A DNA stretch of 10,082 nucleotides. Origin: Myxococcales bacterium (lineage in GTDB: Bacteria > Myxococcota_A > UBA9042). The translations under genes were made by a program, and so were the position numbers. The DNA is taken from NCBI GenBank assembly GCA_037441385.1, contig JBBISH010000172.1, positions 1-10,082 of the forward strand. The letters run 5' to 3'. The notes beneath the pieces are model-generated. The model was not told where the DNA came from. It was given only the letters and a program-made list of their open reading frames with translations, and ran no database searches. Positions 1-10,082 of the stretch are shown here, piece by piece (within the stretch, counting starts at the first letter, position 1; every line of letters starts with the position of its first letter).

Positions 1-1571
1 CACACCGGGTAGCGATCTTCGATCAGCGCGACCTGCTCGTTCTGTAGGGCTTCCAGGTTCTTGCCGATGTCGAGGAACAGCGCCTCGTCCTCGGCCGGTT
101 TGGCCTCTTCGTCGCCCTCGTCGTCGCCTGCTTTGGCCTTGGCCTTGCCGTCGTCTTTCTTGCCCTTCTTCTTGTTGCCCTTCTTTTCTGCCTTGGGCGG
201 CGGCGGGGGCGGCGCTCCGGCGGCCTCGTCCTCGGGCTTGATGCCGGCCAGGGCCAGCCGCAGCAGGTGCACCCAGTCGGGGGCGATGGTGGCGCGATCG
301 TCGTCGTTCAGCTTGGGGTTGTCGATCTCGGCCTGCACCTCGGTCTTGTCGACCATCGCGTCAAAGGGGTGCAAGTGCATGTAAAGCGAATAAAACCGGA
401 ACTTGCGGCTGCCGGCATCGGTCTCGTCGACCGGGATCTCGTGGCGCAGCACCACAAAGTTGTTGGAGCCGAACGGCGGTTCGACCTTGCCCGGCGTGCT
501 GGTCTTGGCCGCGACGACCTGACCGGCAAACATCGCGAGCACCGGCGCGCCCTTGGGCAGGTGCAGGTGGATGCCGCCGTGCCACTGCCCCGACTGGCCG
601 ACCGGGTAGTAGCCGCCCGTCACGCCGCCGCGCGGATCCTCGGTGTTGCGGAAGTAAGCCTCGGCCAGCTTGGTGACCTCGGGCTCGCTGTAGACCGTGT
701 CGATGTTCTTGGGTTTGCCGTCCTTGGCCCAGTCGATGATGGCCGGGAAGCTGTTGGCCTGGCGGTTCAAGTCGGCGATCAGGCGCTCCCACTCAAAGCC
801 GGGACCGGGGTCGATCTTTTGGGCGTTGAGGTGGAAGTGGCCAAAAATGCCGCATTTCCCCAAGTCGATCTCGGTCTGCTCGAGCATCGTCTTTTTGTCG
901 GGGCCGATAGGCGGCATCAAAATGATCTTGGGAAAGCGCTGCTTGAGCGCGCGGATCAACTTGGTCAGCGCGTCGTATTGCGCGTCGGTGTAGCCGACCG
1001 AGCGCCACGGCTCGCCGTTGATGGTCGCTTCGAAGATGCGCCGCTTGCCCTGCGAACCCGACGGCGGGGCGTCGCCAGTCACCTTGACCAGCAAGCAGTT
1101 CATGTCGATGCCGATCGTCTGCAAGTTGGTGTTTTGCAGGGTGTTGTCGGCGCCGCCACCGTGCAGGGCGCTGAAGAGCGGATCGGTGCCCTGGTAGATG
1201 GTGCCGTTCCAGTCGACCATGAAGTGGGTGGACAGGCCGCGCATCTTCAGCACGCGGAAGCAGCCGGCCGAATCTGCCGTGATATCCGAGTGAATCAAGA
1301 TGCCGCGCACCACGTCGGCACATTCTTCGACGGTGGTGAGCTCTTTGCCTTTGAACCGGCGCGGTTCGATCAGGCTGCCGTCGGGACCGCCGCCGGTCAT
1401 GAAGCTCAGCGCACCTGGGTCCTTGAAATTGACGCAGTTGGCGCCGTCGATCGCCAGCGGTTCGCCGCCGACGATGATGTAATTCTTGGCGCCGGCGACC
1501 GCCGGGCCCTGCATGCCCGAGAAGATGCGGGCGTCGGAACCGGCGCTGGGGGGTGTCGGCGTCTGGCTCAC
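1..1571 (-). CDS. Amidase_2 (N-acetylmuramoyl-L-alanine amidase) domain fused to an M23-like/WHIX-like domain; candidate peptidoglycan-targeting effector (3' partial)
   Basis: Hand translation; absent from the ORF track because it has no stop within the window. Open frame from GTG at 1571 (alternative ATG at 1514) to the edge, >=523 codons, starting 10 nt after the upstream TAG. Amidase motifs: ILIHSD (His 1290-1292), STHFMVDWNGTIYQ, ALHGG, NLQTIGIDM, YTDAQYDAL, IFGHFHLNAQKIDPGPGFEWERL (His 837-839, Asp 810-812). Followed by GGYYPVGQSGQWHGGIHLH, APVLAMFAGQVVAA, SNNFVVLRHE and FYSLYMHL. Strong GC3 codon bias. Confidence 0.88.
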   Translation of the reverse strand, partial: MSQTPTPPSAGSDARIFSGMQGPAVAGAKNYIIVGGEPLAIDGANCVNFKDPGALSFMTGGGPDGSLIEPRRFKGKELTTVEECADVVRGILIHSDITADSAGCFRVLKMRGLSTHFMVDWNGTIYQGTDPLFSALHGGGADNTLQNTNLQTIGIDMNCLLVKVTGDAPPSGSQGKRRIFEATINGEPWRSVGYTDAQYDALTKLIRALKQRFPKIILMPPIGPDKKTMLEQTEIDLGKCGIFGHFHLNAQKIDPGPGFEWERLIADLNRQANSFPAIIDWAKDGKPKNIDTVYSEPEVTKLAEAYFRNTEDPRGGVTGGYYPVGQSGQWHGGIHLHLPKGAPVLAMFAGQVVAAKTSTPGKVEPPFGSNNFVVLRHEIPVDETDAGSRKFRFYSLYMHLHPFDAMVDKTEVQAEIDNPKLNDDDRATIAPDWVHLLRLALAGIKPEDEAAGAPPPPPPKAEKKGNKKKGKKDDGKAKAKAGDDEGDEEAKPAEDEALFLDIGKNLEALQNEQVALIEDRYPV

Positions 1572-1581
1572 GTCGGACCGC

Positions 1582-3384
1582 CTAGGCCTTGCTGGCCGCG
1601 GGCTTGCGCCCAAAGAGTTTCTTGCCGATGAGCACCAGGATCAGCAGCACGAGCAGGGCCGCTGCTACCGCCAACACCCAGCCCAAGATCACGTAGACCT
1701 CGTAGCCCACCAGCATCTGGATCTTGACCAGCAGCGACCACGCCACGTCGCCCAGCTGCTGCAAAATCGGCTTGCTCACGGGCAAGTCCAAGGTCAACGG
1801 CTCGGACGAAAGCTGCGTGCCGGGATTCTCGGGCGCCTCGATCTTGGGGTCCAGCCGAATCGACAGGCGCGCGCTGAACTTCTCTTGCACGTCGTCGGGC
1901 GCCTGGTGGGTGAACTCGACGGCCAACTGACCGGTGACCTCGCTCATCGTGCGCGACACGGCCGAGATCGCCGGCACGTTGTCGTCGACCTCGCGGAAGG
2001 TGCCGCCGGTGCGGGCCGCGAGCAGGTGCAGGCGGTCGAGCTCGAACGGGCTGGTGGGCAAGCCTGTGCGGCGGATCCCCACGGCGTAGATGTGGATGTC
2101 GGCGGCGCGCGCGAGGCCGATCCACTGCGCGGCCTTGTCGTGGAACAGCTTCTGCATCAACCCCACGCGGCGCGTCAGGATCTGCTCGCGCTCCATGCAG
2201 GCGCGCATGTCGGTCTGCAGGCGATGGCGCTCGACCAGCTGCTGGCGGTCGCTCATCGCGGCCAGGCGGTCCGCGTTGGCCGGTCCGGCCGGATCGTAGG
2301 CGTTGCACGGCGCGGGTGGGTGCTCAGCGCAAGTGGTGTAGTCCCACACCCAGCCATCGCGGCCGTCGCTCAGCAGGACGATCGCCTTGCGGTTGCCCGG
2401 CTTGCCATCGCGCAGCAGCGTCTGCAGGGCCTGGTCCACCGCCGACGTGTCGAAATCGACGGGCTCCCCGCGCAAGGCTGCGTCCTCGCGCTCCTGCTTG
2501 GCGTGGCTATATTCCTCTTTGGTAAAGTTGCCAAAACCGCTGAGCGCGCCGCCCGGCGTGCCGCAATACCTGGACAATTCGTAGAACGGCGGCCCCAGGT
2601 TGAGCAAGCGCGGAAACGCGCCCTCGAACGGGGCGTTCTTGGCCAGACCCGCCAGCTTGCCTGCGTCGCCTTGCAACCCGCAGAGGTCGGTCCCAGGCTC
2701 GGGCGCCGGGTTGTCCTTGGTGGCGGCCGGGCCCAGCGTGATCGGTCCGCCGGAATGAGCCTGCAGCAGCGCTTCCTTGCACTTTTCGCGCACTTCGCGC
2801 TTCTCGACGTCGACGAGGCGCGTGTCGAAATTCTTGAGACCGGTGGCCTGGTAGATGCGGTCGCCGTACCAGATCAGGTTGACGCGGTCACCCTTGCCCA
2901 GGGGTTTGAAGGCGGCCGCCACGGCGTCGCGGATGCGCTGCTGCATCAGCGGCTCGACAGTAGAGGCGTAACCCTGTACCACCAGGACCAAATCCAGGCC
3001 AACGCCGGCCTCGGCCCGCGGCGCGAGCTTGGCATCTTTGCGGCGGTCCAGCGCCACGCCCTTTTCAAAGCTGACCAGCGCCGGGTTCTGCTTGCTGGCG
3101 ACGGTGGCCTTCTTGCCGCCGTCGAGCACATCCAAGCGCAGCAGGTGTTTCAGTTCGATGGGCGCACCCCGACCGTCGAGCACGGTCGCAAGAAGCTTGA
3201 CGTGCGGCCATCCCGACAGATCCATCGAATCGATGCGCACTTGCGGCAGCACGATCGCCGTGGTCTGGGCCGGAATCGGCGCGGCGGCCTGACTGGCACG
3301 CGCCCACCACAGCTCGCCGACCAGGGCCAGCCCTGCCAGCGCTGCGACCGCCCACAGCCAACGCCGTTGCCGCCCCTGCATCAT
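1582..3384 (-). CDS. Membrane-anchored, exported VWA-domain protein with degenerate MIDAS (~600 aa)
   Basis: ATG at 3384 overlaps the upstream stop as ATGA and gives an N-terminal signal/TM (RQRRWLWAVAALAGLALVG..ASQA). Ig-like start (VRIDSMDLSGWPHVKLLATVLDGRGAPI). VWA strands and helices: LDLVLVVQGYAS, DRVNLIWYGD, SAVDQAL, RKAIVLLSDGRD, IHIYAVGI, LHLLAARTGG. C-terminal TM VILGWVLAVAAALLVLLILVLI followed by a basic tail GKKLFGRK. Confidence 0.82.
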   Translation of the reverse strand: MMQGRQRRWLWAVAALAGLALVGELWWARASQAAAPIPAQTTAIVLPQVRIDSMDLSGWPHVKLLATVLDGRGAPIELKHLLRLDVLDGGKKATVASKQNPALVSFEKGVALDRRKDAKLAPRAEAGVGLDLVLVVQGYASTVEPLMQQRIRDAVAAAFKPLGKGDRVNLIWYGDRIYQATGLKNFDTRLVDVEKREVREKCKEALLQAHSGGPITLGPAATKDNPAPEPGTDLCGLQGDAGKLAGLAKNAPFEGAFPRLLNLGPPFYELSRYCGTPGGALSGFGNFTKEEYSHAKQEREDAALRGEPVDFDTSAVDQALQTLLRDGKPGNRKAIVLLSDGRDGWVWDYTTCAEHPPAPCNAYDPAGPANADRLAAMSDRQQLVERHRLQTDMRACMEREQILTRRVGLMQKLFHDKAAQWIGLARAADIHIYAVGIRRTGLPTSPFELDRLHLLAARTGGTFREVDDNVPAISAVSRTMSEVTGQLAVEFTHQAPDDVQEKFSARLSIRLDPKIEAPENPGTQLSSEPLTLDLPVSKPILQQLGDVAWSLLVKIQMLVGYEVYVILGWVLAVAAALLVLLILVLIGKKLFGRKPAASKA

Positions 3385-3776
3385 GCGCTGAACCGATAGG
3401 GGCGGACGCGATACTCGCCCACGCCGACGTGATCGATGACTTGCCCGTCGCGGTCGAGCAGCTCGGCGACCACGCGGTAGTGACCAGGGACCAAGTCGCG
3501 ATGCGGATAGGGGGTTTCCAGCGTGCGCCGCAAACCTGGGCCAACGCTGACCGGCAGGCCCGGATAGCTGCGGCCGGCAAAGACCACGCACAGGCGGACC
3601 GCGCACGTGCTGGGCGCCGCTTGCGCCACATCGACGTGAACGCGGGCACCGGGGTGGCAGGCCAGACCGCGACCGGTCAGCCAACGCGGCGCCGACGTGG
3701 GGGGCACCGACGCTGCGGCCGTCGCGACCAGCAGGCGCAAGAACGATCGGCGAGAAACGGCGGGAACCACGGCCAT
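3381..3776 (-). CDS. Small hypothetical protein with twin-arginine (Tat) signal (131 aa)
   Basis: ATG at 3776, 46 nt after the thiL stop. N-terminus MAVVPAVSRRSFLRLLVATAAAS matches S-R-R-x-F-L. Beta-rich C-terminus (PGHYRVVAELLDRDGQVID). Its stop overlaps the VWA start (ATGA), and it fills the gap between thiL and the VWA gene. Confidence 0.65.
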   Translation of the reverse strand: MAVVPAVSRRSFLRLLVATAAASVPPTSAPRWLTGRGLACHPGARVHVDVAQAAPSTCAVRLCVVFAGRSYPGLPVSVGPGLRRTLETPYPHRDLVPGHYRVVAELLDRDGQVIDHVGVGEYRVRPYRFSA

Positions 3777-3822
3777 GGGCGCGACAATAGCAAGGCCGCT
3801 GGGCCGCGACAAGCTGCGGGGA

Positions 3823-4833
3823 TCAGGTCCCGTGCAGCCAGCCCGCGCCCTGCACAACCTGCTCGCCAACCGCGACAAAGGCCTTGCCCGCCGGCCCCAC
3901 CGTGATTTCGCCAATCGCGACGCAGGGTAGCTCGGGTAGCGGCCAGGCCTCGGCCAAGTCCAGGTCGGCGGGCGCAGCTACGAGCAGGGCGTAGTCGTCT
4001 CCCCCCGCGCCCATCAGCTCGGCTGGCGAAAGTTGCTGGGATTTCAACCAGTTCAAAGCCTCGACCGGCCAGTCGGGCGCCGCCAGCTGCAGGTGGATGC
4101 CCACGCGCGAGGCCTCTGCCAGACGGGCGGCGTCCAGGGCCAACCCGTCGGACACGTCGAGGCAAGTCAGGCGCGCCCCACCCTGCGCCAGCGCCTGCAG
4201 GTGGCGACCCGCGGCCACCAACGGCTCGGGCCACCAGTGCGCATGGACATAGGGGGCCGCCCAGTGCTGCTCCGGCGGCGGCTGGGGATGCCGCTGCAGC
4301 CAGGCCAGGCCCACCGCGGCCCAACCGACCCGCCCCACCAGCCAGACGCGGTCGCCCGGACGCGCCGTAGAGCGCAGCAGCGGCGGTCCCTGCAACTGCC
4401 CAAGCGCCGTCACACTCCAGCGCTGCGGCCCCGGACAAAGGCCCACGTCGCCGCCCGCGACACTGCAGGCAAAACGGTCGGCCACGGCCGCCAACCCGCG
4501 CGCCGCCCGCAGCAGCCACTCGGAAGACACCTCGCCGCGACACTCCAGCGCCAAGAGGAGCAGCTTGGGCTCGGCGCCCATCGCCGCGAGATCGGAGAGG
4601 TTCACTGCTGCGGCGCGGTGCCCCACGGCCTCGGGCGGCGCCACATCGGCCAGCCAATCCACACCTTCGACCACGCTGTCGACCGTGGCGACGACCTGGC
4701 CGTGCGGCTGCCAGACCAGGGCATCGTCGCCGTTGCTCACGCTGCACGAGGTCGGACGGTCAAAGGTGCGGCGCAGCAACCGCACCAACCGCGTCTCGCC
4801 AAGCTCGGCGACGCTGGGCGGGCGCGGCCGCAT
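3823..4833 (-). CDS. thiL: Thiamine-monophosphate kinase
   Basis: ThiL motifs: ELGETRLV, GDDA, DSVVEGVDW, GHRAAAVNLSDLAAMGAEP, AGGD, RSTARPGDRVWLVG, DVSDGL, GGDDYALL. ATG at 4833 overlaps the dnaJ stop (TGATG). Confidence 0.93.
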   Translation of the reverse strand: MRPRPPSVAELGETRLVRLLRRTFDRPTSCSVSNGDDALVWQPHGQVVATVDSVVEGVDWLADVAPPEAVGHRAAAVNLSDLAAMGAEPKLLLLALECRGEVSSEWLLRAARGLAAVADRFACSVAGGDVGLCPGPQRWSVTALGQLQGPPLLRSTARPGDRVWLVGRVGWAAVGLAWLQRHPQPPPEQHWAAPYVHAHWWPEPLVAAGRHLQALAQGGARLTCLDVSDGLALDAARLAEASRVGIHLQLAAPDWPVEALNWLKSQQLSPAELMGAGGDDYALLVAAPADLDLAEAWPLPELPCVAIGEITVGPAGKAFVAVGEQVVQGAGWLHGT

Positions 4834-5939
4834 CAACTCGCCCCCTGAGCATCGCGGAGCCCAGCGAGGGCACGCAAGTAGCGATCACTGCCAGGGAACT
4901 GCGCGGGCGCAAGAAAGCGATCCAGCGCGGCGATGGCCTCGGCCTGAGCGGGCGCCAGTTGGCAAGGCACCTCGACTTGGATCTGTACGCGCAAGTGCCC
5001 GCGCCCGTTGGGGGCCGGCAAGCCCCGCCCGCCGATGCGAAGCTCTTGGCCCGCCTGACAGCCGGCCGGCAGCGTCAACCGTTCGATGCCTTCCAGGGTG
5101 GGCACCTCGATCGGTCCGCCCAGGGCGGCGCGGCTCCACGGCAGCGTCACCGTGCAAACCAGGTCGTTGCCTTCGACTTTCAGCAAAGGATGCGGCTCGA
5201 CTTGTACGTCGACCAACAGGTCGCCCGGCTCGGCCATCCCGGCCGCCACCTCGCCCACGCCGCGCACACGCAACACCGTGCCGTTGCGGCAACCCGGCGG
5301 CACCTGCACTTCGATGCTCCGCTCGACCGAAACCTCGCCGCGCCCCTGGCAGCGGACGCACTCGGCCACCAGAACCGCCCCGCGGCCGCCGCAAAATCCG
5401 CAGGTGGCGCGCTGCCGTGGCACGCCGACCTTGAAGCCGCCCGTGCCCTGGCAAACATGACACACCGGATTGCGTTCGGGCGCATCGGTCCCCTGCCCGC
5501 GGCACGCAGGACAGGCACACGTGTACTGGGCGTCCACGCGCTCGATACCACCCAAGACCGCACGGACAAAGCTGATTTTCTTGGCCACGCGCAGGTCGAT
5601 CGGCCGCGACTCGGCGGGTAGCACCGGCTTGTCGCGCCGCAGCCGCTTGACGACCAAATCCAAAACATCCAAAGCCTTTTCTGCCCGCGGATCGTCGACC
5701 ATGCGCAGCGGATCGCGCAACATCAGCATCCGGTCGTAGTGGAGGCGTTTGGCGGGGTCCGACAGTTCGGTCCAGGCGCTGGAAATGAGCTGAAAGCAGG
5801 CGGTGGCGCGGGCGGCGCCGCGGTGGCGATCCGGGTGATAGACCCGCGAAAGCTTGCGATAAGCCTCGCGAATAGCCGCAGGATCGGCATTCACCGACAC
5901 GCCAAGGACGCGGTAATGATCGGGGGCGGCGTCGGTCAC
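4833..5939 (-). CDS. dnaJ: DnaJ-family (class A-like) co-chaperone paralog: J domain, zinc finger, C-terminal domain; no G/F-rich linker
   Basis: DHYRVLGV...IREAYRKLSRVYHPDRH J domain. Four CxxCxGxG repeats (CPACRGQG, CHVCQGTG, CGFCGGRG, CVRCQGRG). DnaJ_C motifs VQVPPG, PGDLLV, AALGGPIEVPTLEG, GRGL. GTG start. Probably a paralog rather than the housekeeping copy. Confidence 0.88.
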   Translation of the reverse strand: MTDAAPDHYRVLGVSVNADPAAIREAYRKLSRVYHPDRHRGAARATACFQLISSAWTELSDPAKRLHYDRMLMLRDPLRMVDDPRAEKALDVLDLVVKRLRRDKPVLPAESRPIDLRVAKKISFVRAVLGGIERVDAQYTCACPACRGQGTDAPERNPVCHVCQGTGGFKVGVPRQRATCGFCGGRGAVLVAECVRCQGRGEVSVERSIEVQVPPGCRNGTVLRVRGVGEVAAGMAEPGDLLVDVQVEPHPLLKVEGNDLVCTVTLPWSRAALGGPIEVPTLEGIERLTLPAGCQAGQELRIGGRGLPAPNGRGHLRVQIQVEVPCQLAPAQAEAIAALDRFLAPAQFPGSDRYLRALAGLRDAQGAS

Positions 5940-5988
5940 AAGCGGCTAGCCATTGCGCAGCGGAGTCTCGGGGAAGTGATCGGTAGAA

Positions 5989-7797
<1,809 letters not shown>

Positions 7798-7800
7798 GCT

Positions 7801-7806
7801 TCCTCT
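7801..7806 (-). promoter_or_regulatory. Shine-Dalgarno-like site for dnaK
   Basis: The - strand reads ACAGAGGAAGC-ATG. Spacing to the start codon is short. Confidence 0.5.
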
Positions 7807-7916
7807 GTGTTACCGCTGCGACCGGGTTGCCGGGCCGACCAAGTGGCCGTCGCGACTCACGGGCCCATACGTGCCGCCCGCAAATCCCGAACTGGAGTTG
7901 CGACGGGCAAACTCGC

Positions 7917-7946
7917 ATTTTGACCGAGTCTGCCTCAGTCGGTCAA
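7917..7946 (-). promoter_or_regulatory. Putative sigma70-type promoter (TTGACC-N18-CAAAAT) overlapped by a perfect 8-bp inverted repeat (candidate operator)
   Basis: The + strand at 7920-7946 reads TTGACCGA-gtctgcctcag-TCGGTCAA. On the - strand, -35 TTGACC lies at 7946-7941 and -10 CAAAAT at 7922-7917, about 120 nt upstream of the dnaK ATG. Confidence 0.5.
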
Positions 7947-8052
7947 CCCGCCGGCCCGATTGTGGTCGCCAAGACTACGGAAAAGTGTGAAGAACGGTGA
8001 CGGGACCACCCAAAGAGGCTGGCAGCCGCCGGCCGAGTTTCGCGGACGCACG

Positions 8053-9759
8053 TCACAATCCCGCTCCATCGACCAGAGCTTGGCGCGCCCGAGCCGCCGC
8101 GGCCTCGCCCTCTTGGCCAAGGGCGGCCCAAGCCTGCGCAGACAGCGCGTGGATCGCCGGATCGAACGGGTTCAGCCAAGCCGCCCGCTCCAAGTAGTCC
8201 AGGGCGTCGCGCCAGCGCGCCTGGAGCACCGCGGCCCGGCCAGCCAGCACGCAAAGGGGCGCATGTTCTGGGAATTCAGCCAGAGCCGGCTGCAGGTAGT
8301 CCAAGGCCTCGGCCAGCCGCGACAGGTCCAGCAAGACCCGCACCAAGCGCGCCACCACGTGCGGCCCCTGCTGCGGCCCGGCAGCCAGCGCCTTGCGGTA
8401 CTCGATTGCCGCGGCCTGCGGGCGGTCCAGCAGAGCCAGCCGGTCGCCCAGCTCGGCAAAGCGCCGCGACTCGACGCTGCCCACCTGAGCGACGTCGGCA
8501 TTCACGCTGCGAAAGGTAATCGGCACCTTGCGGGTGGGCGCCTCGGCGGCGTCGCGGAGTTCAAGGCGCTGCAAGTCGCGCTTCCAGGCCGTGGCAAAGG
8601 CCGCGGGAGCCAGCCCCGACACCTGCTGCAACACCGCCGCCTCGTCCAAACCCTGGGCAAACAGCGCGACCATCTGCCCCACGCCGCGCAGCAGATCCGA
8701 CGGCTGCCCTTGGCGCTGCGCTTGCCGCTCGAGCAACCACGCCACGGCGTGGTGGACCTCGGCAAAGGCCAGTTGGGTGTCTTCCTGGCTGGGCAACACC
8801 GCCAACGACGGCCGCATCTTGGCGAGCGGGATGAACCGCCCGGACTTGCGAGCCGCGGCCAACGTGGCGCGCTCGTCGCGGTCCAGATCCAGCACCCCGC
8901 CACCGCGCCAGACCACCTGCAGCCCGCGCGCCAGTCCCTCGTGCAGCCACAGGGGCACACGCGCCCCGCCGCGCTTGATCACGAACCAGTGCACCAGTTC
9001 GTGCACCACGGTGTCGGCCCACGGGTAGCCATACACCAGATCCTGCGGGCTGGTGATCATGACGCGATTGTGCTTGCAAAGCGCGATGGTCCCCGAGGTG
9101 CGAATCTGCGCGACCGTAAGGCCAGAGACCCGCGCCAGATCGTCGGCATGGGGGTACACGTGTACGGTGATCGGCGCGCCCGCGGCACCAAAAGCCGTTT
9201 CGAGCTTGGGCAATGCCCGCGCGAGCACCGTCTCTAGGTAGCCCAGCAAGACTTCGTCCGCCCCCGGATGCACCCACGCCAGCACCTTGCCGCCCACCAG
9301 CGGACGCGGCTTGCAGCCGGCCAGGATGTCCAGGGTGGCGTCGGCCACGTCGGCGTAGCTGTCGGCCTGTTCGCGCAAGCCGGGCGGTACGCTGGCGTGG
9401 GTGGCGATCTTGCGCAGCGTGGTTTGGGCCTTGGCGTAGTCACCGGCCAGAAAGTCGGCAATTCCGTGCCAGAATTCGCGCGACATCGAACCTTCGGGCG
9501 CCACGGCATCGATCTCGGCCAGCACCGATCGGGCACACTGCGGGTCCTCGCGGCCCAAGCAGTCGGCGGCACGCTGGGCCAGTTGTAGCCACGGATCGGC
9601 GGCCGCCAATGCAGCCGGCGCAGCGACCGGGCGGCCCGCGGGGGGCGCAGCCAGCGCAGCTGCAACAGGATGAGACAGCCACGTAGCGAGCAGGCAGGCG
9701 GCCGCCACGACCCGCGCCCAGGCAGCGATCGGAGAAAGGGCAGCACCACAACGCAACAC
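8053..9759 (-). CDS. Exported TPR-containing zinc metallopeptidase (peptidase MA-like/gluzincin)
   Basis: DTVVHELVHW (HExxH at 8989-9003) followed by VPLWLHEGLA (third-ligand Glu at 8938-8940). TPR-like helices lie on both sides (GIADFLAGDYAKAQTTL; LGDRLALLDRPQAAAIEYRKALA; LAGRAAVLQARWRDALDYLERAAWLNPFDPAIH). Hydrophobic signal-like segment VVAAACLLATWL..AAALA. The start is uncertain: GTG 9759 chosen (AAGGCGG upstream), GTG 9708 also possible. Confidence 0.82.
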   Translation of the reverse strand: MLRCGAALSPIAAWARVVAAACLLATWLSHPVAAALAAPPAGRPVAAPAALAAADPWLQLAQRAADCLGREDPQCARSVLAEIDAVAPEGSMSREFWHGIADFLAGDYAKAQTTLRKIATHASVPPGLREQADSYADVADATLDILAGCKPRPLVGGKVLAWVHPGADEVLLGYLETVLARALPKLETAFGAAGAPITVHVYPHADDLARVSGLTVAQIRTSGTIALCKHNRVMITSPQDLVYGYPWADTVVHELVHWFVIKRGGARVPLWLHEGLARGLQVVWRGGGVLDLDRDERATLAAARKSGRFIPLAKMRPSLAVLPSQEDTQLAFAEVHHAVAWLLERQAQRQGQPSDLLRGVGQMVALFAQGLDEAAVLQQVSGLAPAAFATAWKRDLQRLELRDAAEAPTRKVPITFRSVNADVAQVGSVESRRFAELGDRLALLDRPQAAAIEYRKALAAGPQQGPHVVARLVRVLLDLSRLAEALDYLQPALAEFPEHAPLCVLAGRAAVLQARWRDALDYLERAAWLNPFDPAIHALSAQAWAALGQEGEAAAARARQALVDGAGL

Positions 9760-9819
9760 CGCACCCGCCTTGCGAGCCCGCAACGGGGCAATCCCCAGCG
9801 GCTCGGGCCCGCGACCGGC

Positions 9820-9848
9820 ATCGTACAGGATGGAAACTGGGGCGGCTA
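9820..9848 (-). promoter_or_regulatory. Possible sigma70-like promoter for the peptidase gene (TAGCCG-N17-TACGAT)
   Basis: Correct 17-nt spacing within the divergent intergenic region. The -10 is reasonable and the -35 is weak. Confidence 0.25.
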
Positions 9849-9850
9849 CG

Positions 9851-9867
9851 CCGGCTTTGGAATTGCG
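9851..9867 (+). promoter_or_regulatory. Possible sigma54 (-24/-12) promoter for the SRPBCC gene
   Basis: CCGGCTTTGGAATTGCG has GG-N10-GC spacing with GGC and TTGC intact, about 55 nt upstream of ATG 9922. It lacks the usual ACG after GGC. Confidence 0.3.
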
Positions 9868-9911
9868 CCCAGCCGGCAACTCGCGTAGGGTCGCAGGTGC
9901 AGATCCCGCCC

Positions 9912-9919
9912 GGAGGAGG
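9912..9919 (+). promoter_or_regulatory. Shine-Dalgarno site
   Basis: GGAGGAGG directly upstream of ATG 9922. Confidence 0.75.
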
Positions 9920-9921
9920 CC

Positions 9922-10082
9922 ATGGCCAAGAAGATTCTGATTGTCCTTGCCGTTCTGCTGCTCGCCCTGCTGGGCGTGGTGGCCACGCGTCCGGACCACT
10001 ATACCGTCAAGCGGAGCACGACCATTGGCGTGCCGGCCGACAAAGTCTTTGCCTTGCTGGCTGATTTCCATGTGTGGAGCCA
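9922..10082 (+). CDS. SRPBCC (polyketide cyclase/dehydrase, START-like) family protein with N-terminal TM/signal (3' partial)
   Basis: Hand translation, not in the ORF track: MAKKILIVLAVLLLALLGVVATRPDHYTVKRSTTIGVPADKVFALLADFHVWS. This fits the typical P-x-x-[FY]-x-V-x-RS-x-x-I-x-x-P-x-x-x-VF-x-x-x-x-DF-x-x-W start of SRPBCC proteins. Strong RBS. Confidence 0.85.
   Translation, partial: MAKKILIVLAVLLLALLGVVATRPDHYTVKRSTTIGVPADKVFALLADFHVWS

Follow-up and report, generated by a model that had tools for sequence, protein, structure and literature searches.

The window, by which we mean the whole 10,082-nucleotide stretch whose first lines are shown above, begins on the minus strand with an open reading frame (3..1613) whose 3' end is open. 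The initial annotation had proposed that an unlisted gene lies here, encoding an AmpD-like amidase fused to a WHxxxH domain, and all of its motif coordinates agree exactly with the sequence (Table 1). The gene, referred to here as amidase-WHIX, is real: a homology search with its product gave 28 matches at E <= 0.001, and the nearest of them, 802 aa long, is 94% identical. Its GTG start codon is located 10 bases past the stop codon of the upstream gene. Since the window begins at base 1 of contig C172, the gene is incomplete in the assembly; close full-length relatives are ~800 aa. A tblastn search of the rest of the genome did not recover the 282 residues that are missing (best E 0.95), and a continuation of the gene on another contig was rejected on this basis. 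No longer homologues were found in the size range 941-2685 aa. As had been claimed, the protein displays neither a signal peptide nor a transmembrane (TM) segment; averaged over 19 residues, its Kyte-Doolittle hydropathy peaks at 1.1. The described setting behind chaperone and thiL genes was also recovered, with dnaK, dnaJ and a thiL-like gene upstream and no vgrG, hcp or PAAR in a Pfam scan of the window.

Table 1. Positions of the amidase-WHIX gene, its domains and motifs, and the paired upstream gene within the window.
Feature	Position	Strand	Remark
Amidase-WHIX gene, first 523 codons	3..1571	-	GTG start at 1571..1569, used by relatives; cut by contig end
Amidase_2 (AmpD/PGRP-type zinc amidase) domain	801..1310	-	Pfam; alignment to AmpD and AmpDh2
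Amidase span	ILIHSD 1284..1301 to GHFHLNAQKIDPGPGFEW 789..842	-	motif coordinates
WHIX region 1, first half of split M23/LytM fold (NTE..GGYYPVG..WHGGIH .. GSNNFVVLRHE .. FYSLYMHL)	372..677	-	
YYPVGQSGQWHGGIHLH	561..611	-	motif coordinate
WHGGIH motif	567..584	-	aligns with lysostaphin MHYGVD (HxxxD zinc motif)
PVLAMFAGQVVAA	507..545	-	motif coordinate
SNNFVVLRHE	438..467	-	motif coordinate
FYSLYMHL	372..395	-	motif coordinate
Variable insert between WHIX halves, partly low-complexity (Pro/Lys/Glu-rich)	81..371	-	alignment gaps
Start of WHIX region 2, second half of M23-like fold	3..80	-	rest lies past contig end
TM700, frequently paired upstream gene	1582..3387	-	start taken as ATG at 3387

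The proposed N-terminal amidase is supported by a Pfam match to Amidase_2 (PF01510) over residues 102-271, which reaches 42 bits (cut-off 26; E 1.5e-10), and the same domain scores above the cut-off in 10/10 scanned relatives. AmpD is its best sequence match in the PDB. The zinc ligands (His, His and Asp) and the catalytic Lys align with those of AmpD (1j3g) and AmpDh2, which are anhydro-MurNAc-L-Ala amidases. In the alignment of relatives H92, D154, H243 and D252 are invariant and K250 is near-invariant (P0002 numbering). The catalytic Glu of AmpD (SIGIEL), however, is replaced by an invariant Asp in the amidase-WHIX family. AmpD likewise lacks a signal peptide, but the amidase-WHIX protein is ~4x longer, carries the WHIX domain and reaches only 38.6 bits with the NCBIfam AmpD equivalog, far under the cut-off of 143.

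The initial annotation had likened the remainder of the protein to WHIX, a secretion domain described in 2025 as specific to the T6SS, with a fold then unknown (PMC12135965). Judged by profile comparison, this likeness is homology across the whole two-part length of the domain (hhalign 100%, E 8.8e-55, positions 4-437 against 30-460, obtained with a profile other than that of PMC12135965 itself). The conserved regions of the founding protein comprise residues 31-126 and 271-476 and form one module (PMC12135965). All motifs of the amidase-WHIX family recur in the same order in both regions of the founding Vibrio WHIX effector VA01435, where WHGGIH is in register with residues 31-47. The W and both H residues of WHGGIH are invariant in 24/24 and 25/25 aligned sequences. 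A link to a WHIX protein was obtained by tblastn against plasmids; cluster look-ups returned no named WHIX link, as 10/10 clusters were single unnamed metagenome proteins. In the supplements of PMC12135965 other than the S1 Dataset, WP_322786935 does not occur, and its genome is present in the genome table. Relatives of the domain are overwhelmingly polymorphic toxin fusions.

Profile and fold comparisons together identify the WHIX-like domain as a split M23/LytM fold in which HxxxH replaces HxxxD; the initial annotation had already pointed out the M23-like motif series and this replacement. Because WHGGIH aligns with lysostaphin MHYGVD, the position of the Asp ligand is occupied by His. Of the two His residues in the M23 HxH motif only the second is kept, LVHIE standing in place of HLHFE; the first is replaced by Leu or Val. 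In both respects the domain differs from M23/LytM peptidases (lysostaphin, LytM) and from the non-catalytic LytM adaptors EnvC, DipM and SpoIIQ. A further difference is that the fold is split here by a ~100-residue insert and extended by a ~190-residue helical module. The domain is predicted as one compact model (pTM 0.83), with the low-complexity core of the insert predicted to be disordered (pLDDT < 50, model residues 168-198). Pfam Peptidase_M23 (PF01551) matches below its cut-off (E 3.7e-4, 21.1 bits against 28.7) and covers only profile positions 3-56 of 96; it exceeds the cut-off in 3/10 relatives, likewise over the first half of the profile only. The best structural matches include the non-catalytic LytM adaptors DipM, EnvC and SpoIIQ; a phage endolysin M23 domain (6yj1) and two tail lysins of phages (3csq, 9k2v) are also among the fold matches.

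A second toxin had been suggested as possible beyond the window. In full-length relatives this part completes WHIX with its second half, after which come a charged, helical segment and a short tail that is conserved (L.DLWE.P..PGEW). No further Pfam domain was detected in 10/10 scanned relatives, and the second toxin was rejected.

The amidase-WHIX gene is present in 37/41 relatives, mostly in one copy, among housekeeping genes. It sits between the thiL-like gene and a GSFDPxTxGH nucleotidyltransferase gene, which we take to be CoaD-like. This conservation, copy number and position are unlike those of a polymorphic toxin, and such behaviour of the homologues had been named beforehand as an observation that would refute an effector. 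A small immunity-like gene 3' of amidase-WHIX, a holin-like neighbour, and an adjoining vgrG or PAAR gene were all lacking at the loci looked at. A pattern-based locus scan, which used family-specific patterns, returned only Myxococcota-type loci and is uninformative on distant contexts.

The gene directly upstream, TM700, precedes amidase-WHIX in 54/64 loci with at least 2.5 kb of upstream sequence and in 25/31 loci. It is missing in 10/64 loci, and in one close relative an unrelated gene takes its place. Judged by eye, its product has a signal-like N-terminal segment followed by ~530 aa, one C-terminal TM helix and a short basic tail; the TM helix and basic tail are present in 20/20 sequences. 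The ~530-aa part is probably vWA-like. An Atlas feature score of 0.94 against vWA clusters serves as a lead only, and no match was found in Pfam or PHROG. At ~600 aa the protein is far above the typical size of immunity proteins.

In T6SS effectors WHIX is an adaptor whose deep cavity caps the tail of the spike protein, as on VgrG4, and >98% of WHIX cases sit in T6SS-encoding genomes (PMC12135965). The initial annotation had taken the protein for such an effector, and there are points in favour of a subclass II WHIX effector loaded on VgrG. The protein carries the WHxxxH motif and the bipartite domain, homologous in both regions to subclass II effectors such as Awe1 of Aeromonas jandaei (PMC12135965). 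Subclass II is defined by a toxic domain >99 aa N-terminal of WHIX and a neighbouring gene whose product has a signal peptide (PMC12135965); here a peptidoglycan-targeting domain precedes WHIX, and the upstream gene with its signal-like N-terminus recalls the upstream immunity genes described in that study. Table 2 of PMC12135965 also includes one protein with an AmpD-like amidase and WHIX, WP_044238255.1. In the window's genome, which is 90.9% complete, TssC, Hcp and Phage_GPD (VgrG-type) gave no match. This survey had been set in advance as a check on the T6SS reading, and its outcome counts against it. TssC is found in 3/41 relatives and in 0/25 genomes of the window's family (G000 counted), and in a phylum sample the marker occurs in 10/77 genomes with amidase-WHIX and 21/224 without. 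In contrast to subclass II effectors, the gene has no vgrG or PAAR neighbour, encodes no C-terminal toxin, is conserved and mostly single-copy where theirs are polymorphic, has family-specific motifs (EWSDQVDW) and a conserved C-terminal tail, and co-occurs with a different injection machine. A T6SS effector is thus largely refuted and very unlikely. What can be retained, in modified form, is the more general notion of a cell-wall effector that is injected, since a contractile injection system (CIS) other than a T6SS does co-occur with the family.

The window's genome contains a full Afp/PVC-like CIS gene set. Within the phylum sample (301 genomes, 77 family-positive and 224 family-negative), the eCIS cap marker was detected in 71/77 positive as compared to 52/224 negative genomes, counts that take in related, non-independent genomes and so overstate the association. 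Four of the 6 family-positive genomes without the cap marker (G010, G026, G028 and G038) show another CIS marker. At family and genus level, in f7, g26 and g31, presence or absence of amidase-WHIX equals presence or absence of the CIS exactly. The CIS is far more widespread than the family, as the 52 cap-positive genomes without it indicate. Genes for known eCIS cargo usually lie at the end of the cluster, and N-terminal signals direct their products into the tube. The amidase-WHIX family resembles such cargo in being nearly confined to eCIS-positive genomes, but differs in having a domain of the spike-adaptor type and in lying remote from the cluster (C172 as compared to C29 and C198 in the window's genome); it was never on a CIS-cluster contig in any genome with listed positions. 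Like amidase-WHIX, the genes for the CIS spike and PAAR lie away from the cluster, scattered among housekeeping genes. The CIS spike stops where its beta-helix does (conserved ...INLN), without a free tail like the WHIX-capped one of VgrG4. Prediction of a complex of the WH domain with three spike tips and PAAR gave no answer (score 0.00 twice, no controls) and is evidence neither way.

The reading we favour, plausible though not quite probable, is that of a peptidoglycan amidase delivered by, or acting with, the Afp/PVC-like injection system. The protein would be made without a signal peptide and have two working parts. Its AmpD-type zinc amidase would release the stem peptide of peptidoglycan from MurNAc, and the WHIX-homologous remainder, in which a disordered insert divides an M23/LytM fold and a helical module extends it, may dock on the CIS. 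The protein could in this way be a payload or a tip-associated lysin, whose delivery would lead to degradation of the wall of target bacteria, with TM700, a putative membrane protein with a signal-like N-terminus, as a candidate immunity or docking partner. The separate contigs, the tailless spike, the conserved, mostly single-copy gene between housekeeping neighbours, the lack of a small immunity-like gene, the loci without TM700, the non-independence of the counted genomes, the wider spread of the CIS, the six family-positive genomes without the cap marker and the usual encoding of cargo in the cluster are points against this reading.

Alternatively, the protein might be a cell-wall enzyme particular to this lineage, with a housekeeping or autolytic function that has nothing to do with the CIS; their co-occurrence would then reflect shared ancestry only. 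It could be a cytoplasmic recycling amidase of the AmpD kind, or a self-regulating amidase with a LytM-like adaptor (as in EnvC and DipM) held at the membrane by TM700. The conserved, mostly single gene among dnaK, dnaJ, thiL-like and CoaD-like neighbours, the AmpD match, the lack of a signal peptide as in cytoplasmic AmpD, the non-catalytic adaptors among the top structural matches and the lost HxH histidine are consistent with this. However, the domain is full-length WHIX, not plain LytM, its relatives are overwhelmingly toxin fusions, and the AmpD equivalog score is low; shared ancestry alone is not an easy account of the exact match with the CIS in f7, g26 and g31. On balance such an enzyme is on the unlikely side.

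A CIS-linked protein that is not cargo draws on the same co-occurrence data. It might lyse the producer like an endolysin and so release particles, or act with TM700 as a membrane-docking or wall-opening factor. Holin-dependent endolysins also lack signal peptides, the fold matches include the phage endolysin domain and tail lysins noted above, and conservation without diversification suits an accessory factor more than a toxin. Dependence of a CIS on a membrane protein that acts separately has been shown (PMC12237407). The docking version can be loosely likened to CisA, the membrane adaptor of the Streptomyces cytoplasmic CIS. We nonetheless regard a non-cargo role as unlikely: no holin-like neighbour was seen in the loci looked at, TM700 has no detected similarity to named families (Pfam, PHROG), and the published role of WHIX is spike loading, not lysis.

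These results reveal a large conserved WHIX family in a lineage without T6SS, one that tracks an Afp/PVC-like injection system instead. A wider proposal, which for now is rather doubtful, is that WHIX is not T6SS-specific and would be an old M23/LytM-derived peptide-binding adaptor common to two contractile injection machines, the Afp/PVC-like system of uncultured Myxococcota using a WHIX amidase as a tip-loaded antibacterial payload. In the papers searched, no tie of WHIX to M23/LytM or to eCIS was found. eCIS are reported to be highly expressed in marine Myxococcota (environmental metatranscriptomes, PMC11937823). If the proposal is true, amidase-WHIX would be the first candidate effector for these systems and would exemplify spike-adaptor loading outside T6SS. 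A functional link would make adaptor-mediated loading common to T6SS and eCIS, and would name a payload for eCIS strongly expressed by uncultured, presumably predatory Myxococcota. The fold of WHIX can now be assigned as split M23/LytM with His kept at three zinc-ligand positions, which suggests that the substrate groove of a peptidase was repurposed to form the deep cavity described for WHIX. This assignment provides concrete residues for mutation.

The amidase-WHIX gene lies in a frame that is open at the left window edge, and because the window comprises bases 1-10082 of its contig, C172, the gene is truncated by the assembly (221 contigs, 90.9% complete). A GTG at 1571..1569 is the start used by relatives, with the upstream gene's stop 10 bases before it. 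The missing 282 residues had no match elsewhere in the genome (tblastn, best E 0.95). Every motif lay exactly where the initial annotation had placed it, and the absence of a signal peptide or transmembrane segment was borne out by the lack of any hydrophobic segment (maximum KD19 = 1.1). Searched against proteins of comparable length, the sequence gave 28 homologues, named at source only as "hypothetical protein" or "amidase" and derived from Myxococcales or Deltaproteobacteria MAGs; the closest, P0002, has 802 aa and 94% identity. The amidase proposed at the N-terminus was confirmed by an Amidase_2 match above the Pfam cut-off (E 1.5e-10) and by alignment with AmpD and AmpDh2, in which the zinc-binding residues and the catalytic Lys are retained and an invariant Asp stands where AmpD has the Glu of SIGIEL. 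The amidase looks intact.

Beyond the window edge, relatives continue with V.VGDRIGR.GEFGD......LVHIEVF, followed by a conserved module (HVSEWSDQVDW .. LPYIWL .. FHPINFL), a stretch of charged helix and, at the C-terminus, a short conserved tail, L.DLWE.P..PGEW. No further Pfam domain was found in 10 of 10 full-length relatives scanned, and the second toxin that had been suspected beyond the window was therefore dismissed. Among 30 additional hits to the family, with lengths of 586-757 aa, 24 carry an N-terminal Amidase_2, so that the amidase-WHIX architecture is dominant in that sample. In the full-length model (pLDDT 75.2, pTM 0.72) 23 residues at the N-terminus and 28 at the C-terminus are disordered, and the tail is thus not seen docked in cis.

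By a sequence match to lysostaphin and a confident structural model, the WHxxxH domain is a split M23/LytM fold. The lysostaphin catalytic domain was the best solved-structure match by sequence (E 1.2e-4) of A2, a domain-only profile built from 25 sequences of the fetched loci, and the AlphaFold2 model of the domain (pLDDT 81.8, pTM 0.83) has two conserved halves joined in one module around a disordered insert. The Pfam match to Peptidase_M23 was sub-threshold and spans only profile positions 3-56 of 96. WHgGvH aligned on MHYGVD, the HxxxD zinc motif of lysostaphin, which, with the M23-type predicted fold, upholds the earlier description of an M23-like motif series carrying HxxxH for HxxxD. 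At the predicted zinc-ligand positions the first His is kept and the second is His instead of Asp; Y.HL also retains its His, and of the two His in HxH the second remains and the first is lost. Short DNA matches to the Pro/Lys/Glu-rich stretch that codes for part of the insert occur on two further contigs of this genome (C61, 28 bases at 100%; C21, 93 bases at 73%), probably a low-complexity coincidence.

In the passages of the WHIX paper used here (PMC12135965), WHIX is a bipartite domain (residues 31-126 and 271-476 of a Vibrio alginolyticus effector), named for its WHxxxH motif, that forms a module with a deep cavity and is predicted to cap the VgrG C-terminal tail; more than 98% of WHIX-containing genomes have a T6SS. 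Searching 1.84 billion representatives with A2 gave 1,916 proteins at E <= 0.001 and 117 at E <= 1e-30. Many of the 27 hits scanned carry toxin-type partners (VgrG3-like_C, Pesticin, SLT, M15, C39-like, Ntox44, Tlde1 as a weak match, SpoIID and true M23). One hit, P0120, led by tblastn to a gene on a Paraburkholderia sprentiae plasmid, directly after vgrG in a tssB-tssC-vgrG...PAAR-tssM cluster; the genome appears in the genome table of PMC12135965. A2 aligned to this protein with an hhalign probability of 98.9% (E 2.1e-17), and to an alignment of it with 10 N-terminal-domain proteins with a probability of 100% (E 8.8e-55, 375 columns, positions 4-437 on 30-460). In the residue list of the founding effector VA01435, taken from the model file of that paper, every family motif is present and in order. 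By the search, its toxin partners, the profile alignments and the motif order, the domain can be assigned to WHIX, as the initial annotation had suggested.

Coordinates of features in the window, in other loci and in VA01435
Feature	Location	Details
Amidase-WHIX open frame	window 3..1613 (-)	
Pro/Lys/Glu-rich coding stretch	window 102..228	
TM700 gene	window 1582..3387 (-)	
Small ORF	window 3381..3914 (-)	weak TAT-signal match, E 0.0035
Protein upstream of dnaK	window 8053..10071 (-)	672 aa; Peptidase_MA_2 sub-threshold, TPR_19 above threshold
CIS locus, part on C198	L043:3713-5833	
CIS locus, part on C29	L041:3687-19416	
CIS cap and sheath		Pvc16_N; two sheath paralogs, 393 aa and 598 aa
CIS tube genes		gp19-type tube; CIS_tube+LysM
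CIS hub		gpD-like; PHROG "tail protein", E 2.7e-25
CIS baseplate_J and neighbours		gp25; Baseplate_J; Tail_P2_I with PASTA domain
ORF inside CIS cluster	L041:6613-11202	1529 aa; no Pfam or PHROG match
vWA+FHA protein	L042:1-1716	flanks CIS cluster
Ser/Thr kinase with Lcl_C domain	L041:297-2141	flanks CIS cluster
Phage_base_V spike	L153:8056-8850 (C100)	264 aa
PAAR protein	L154:2420-2746 (C156)	108 aa
Met-zincin (DUF4953) match	L154:4249-7197	982 aa
Upstream gene, not TM700	L047:1363-3519	unrelated 718-aa ORF
Upstream gene, not TM700	L046:607-3681	
Family match in G284	G284:C24:49422-49646	in 1314-aa open frame
VA01435 motif	residues 31-47	GRYLIGQGYGWHSGIHL
VA01435 motif	residues 90-100	YSNNFVLIEHE
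VA01435 motif	residues 111-120	FKFYTLYMHL
VA01435 motif	residues 271-281	VSAGEDIGYMG
VA01435 motif	residues 298-305	RVHIEMFS
VA01435 motif	residues 384-391	IVKHPTDW
VA01435 motif	residues 470-476	LWHYWPF

The gene had been put forward as a T6SS effector, and this reading was largely ruled out. TssC, Hcp and Phage_GPD gave no match in the genome, with the E. coli control detected each time. TssC was found in 3 of 41 relatives and in 0 of 25 genomes of the window's family, whereas 37 of the 41 carry the gene, mostly in a single full-length copy; among the 33 relatives of high quality it is in 31. From the phylum, 301 genomes were sampled evenly, with the family scored as present at E <= 1e-10; TssC occurred in 31, of which 10 were among the 77 family-positive genomes and 21 among the 224 family-negative ones (overlap counted from lists). 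Only one genome from outside the window's class has the family but no eCIS cap marker; this genome, G284, carries a T6SS (TssC E 1.9e-128), and its family match may be an ordinary T6SS WHIX effector.

The survey for eCIS genes that the initial annotation had called for uncovered an Afp/PVC-type locus, complete in its gene set and divided between two contigs. Many relatives likewise have two sheath genes spaced by about 3 kb. The spike gene stands alone, flanked by a gene for an HflX-type GTPase and by genes for NADH dehydrogenase (complex I) subunits; the spike has 47-100% identity across the class, a higher conservation than that of the amidase-WHIX protein. The PAAR gene is likewise solitary, on another contig; the tip components are therefore scattered among housekeeping genes, like the amidase-WHIX gene. 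The long ORF inside the cluster is overlapped by long opposite-strand ORFs, so that the gene content given there is provisional.

Presence of the family followed that of the CIS. Sheath, hub and spike were detected in 36, 35 and 37 of the 41 relatives. Three genomes (G033, G037, G040) have neither the gene nor any of the three markers, and one that is 69% complete (G002) lacks the gene alone; of the two gene-positive genomes without a sheath match, one has the spike (G026) and the other the hub (G038). Across the phylum sample, the cap marker was present in 71 and absent in 6 of the 77 family-positive genomes, and present in 52 and absent in 172 of the 224 family-negative ones (odds ratio 39), figures that overstate the statistical weight, since genomes that are related do not count as independent. 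Of the 28 family-positive genomes that lie outside the class of the window, 27 have the cap. In family f7, 10 of 14 genomes hold both, the same ones in each search, and 0 of 4 in family f10 hold either. The splits within genera are the strongest part of this evidence: one of four genomes in g26 (G160) and one of two in g31 (G283) are positive, in each case the identical genome in both searches.

The order in most loci of the window's family is dnaK, dnaJ, a thiL-like gene, a small TAT-like ORF, TM700 and amidase-WHIX, followed by a gene with a GSFDPxTxGH signature, which we take to be CoaD-like. Of 31 loci, 25 have TM700 immediately upstream, and the remaining six have at most 1.5 kb of flank; where the upstream sequence extends to 2.5 kb or more, TM700 lies there in 54 of 64 loci. 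At its C-terminus a single TM helix is followed by a short basic tail (20 of 20 sequences), its N-terminus is signal-like as judged by eye, and a likeness to vWA proteins, from Atlas features only, is a lead. In two same-genus relatives another gene takes its place. Within the window's family most loci conserve the small ORF, whose end abuts the likely TM700 start at 3387.

Taken as a CIS effector, the protein would dock on the CIS through its WHIX-like domain, by analogy with VgrG capping, and the amidase would act on the wall of the target cell. Against this mechanism, the CIS spike lacks a free tail, and the gene is conserved rather than polymorphic and remote from the CIS cluster. A wall enzyme independent of the CIS is one alternative, to be set against the shared presence and absence of gene and CIS; the other is an accessory protein of the CIS that acts in lysis or in docking at the membrane, loosely like CisA of Streptomyces. 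For the effector, TM700 may provide immunity or docking, as the immunity genes lying upstream of subclass II WHIX effectors suggest by analogy, but it far exceeds immunity proteins of typical size and is not always adjacent.

WHIX effectors are already known, and in the parts of PMC12135965 used here peptidoglycan-targeting domains often flank WHIX, an AmpD-like amidase among them in one listed protein. New here is that a lineage lacking T6SS conserves a WHIX family, that this family is associated with an Afp/PVC-like system and that WHIX can be assigned a split M23/LytM fold carrying HxxxH. Among the papers searched on WHIX, alone or with T6SS, M23, LytM, eCIS or contractile injection, none linking WHIX to M23/LytM or eCIS was found. 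An Afp/PVC-like eCIS is reported to be strongly expressed in uncultured Myxococcota (PMC11937823), and the eCIS passages of that paper name no effector.

Near the PAAR gene lie the Met-zincin protein and a 441-aa protein without Pfam match, and this neighbourhood could be another tip-associated module. A vWA+FHA protein flanks the CIS cluster and TM700 is vWA-like, which hints that vWA proteins recur around the CIS.
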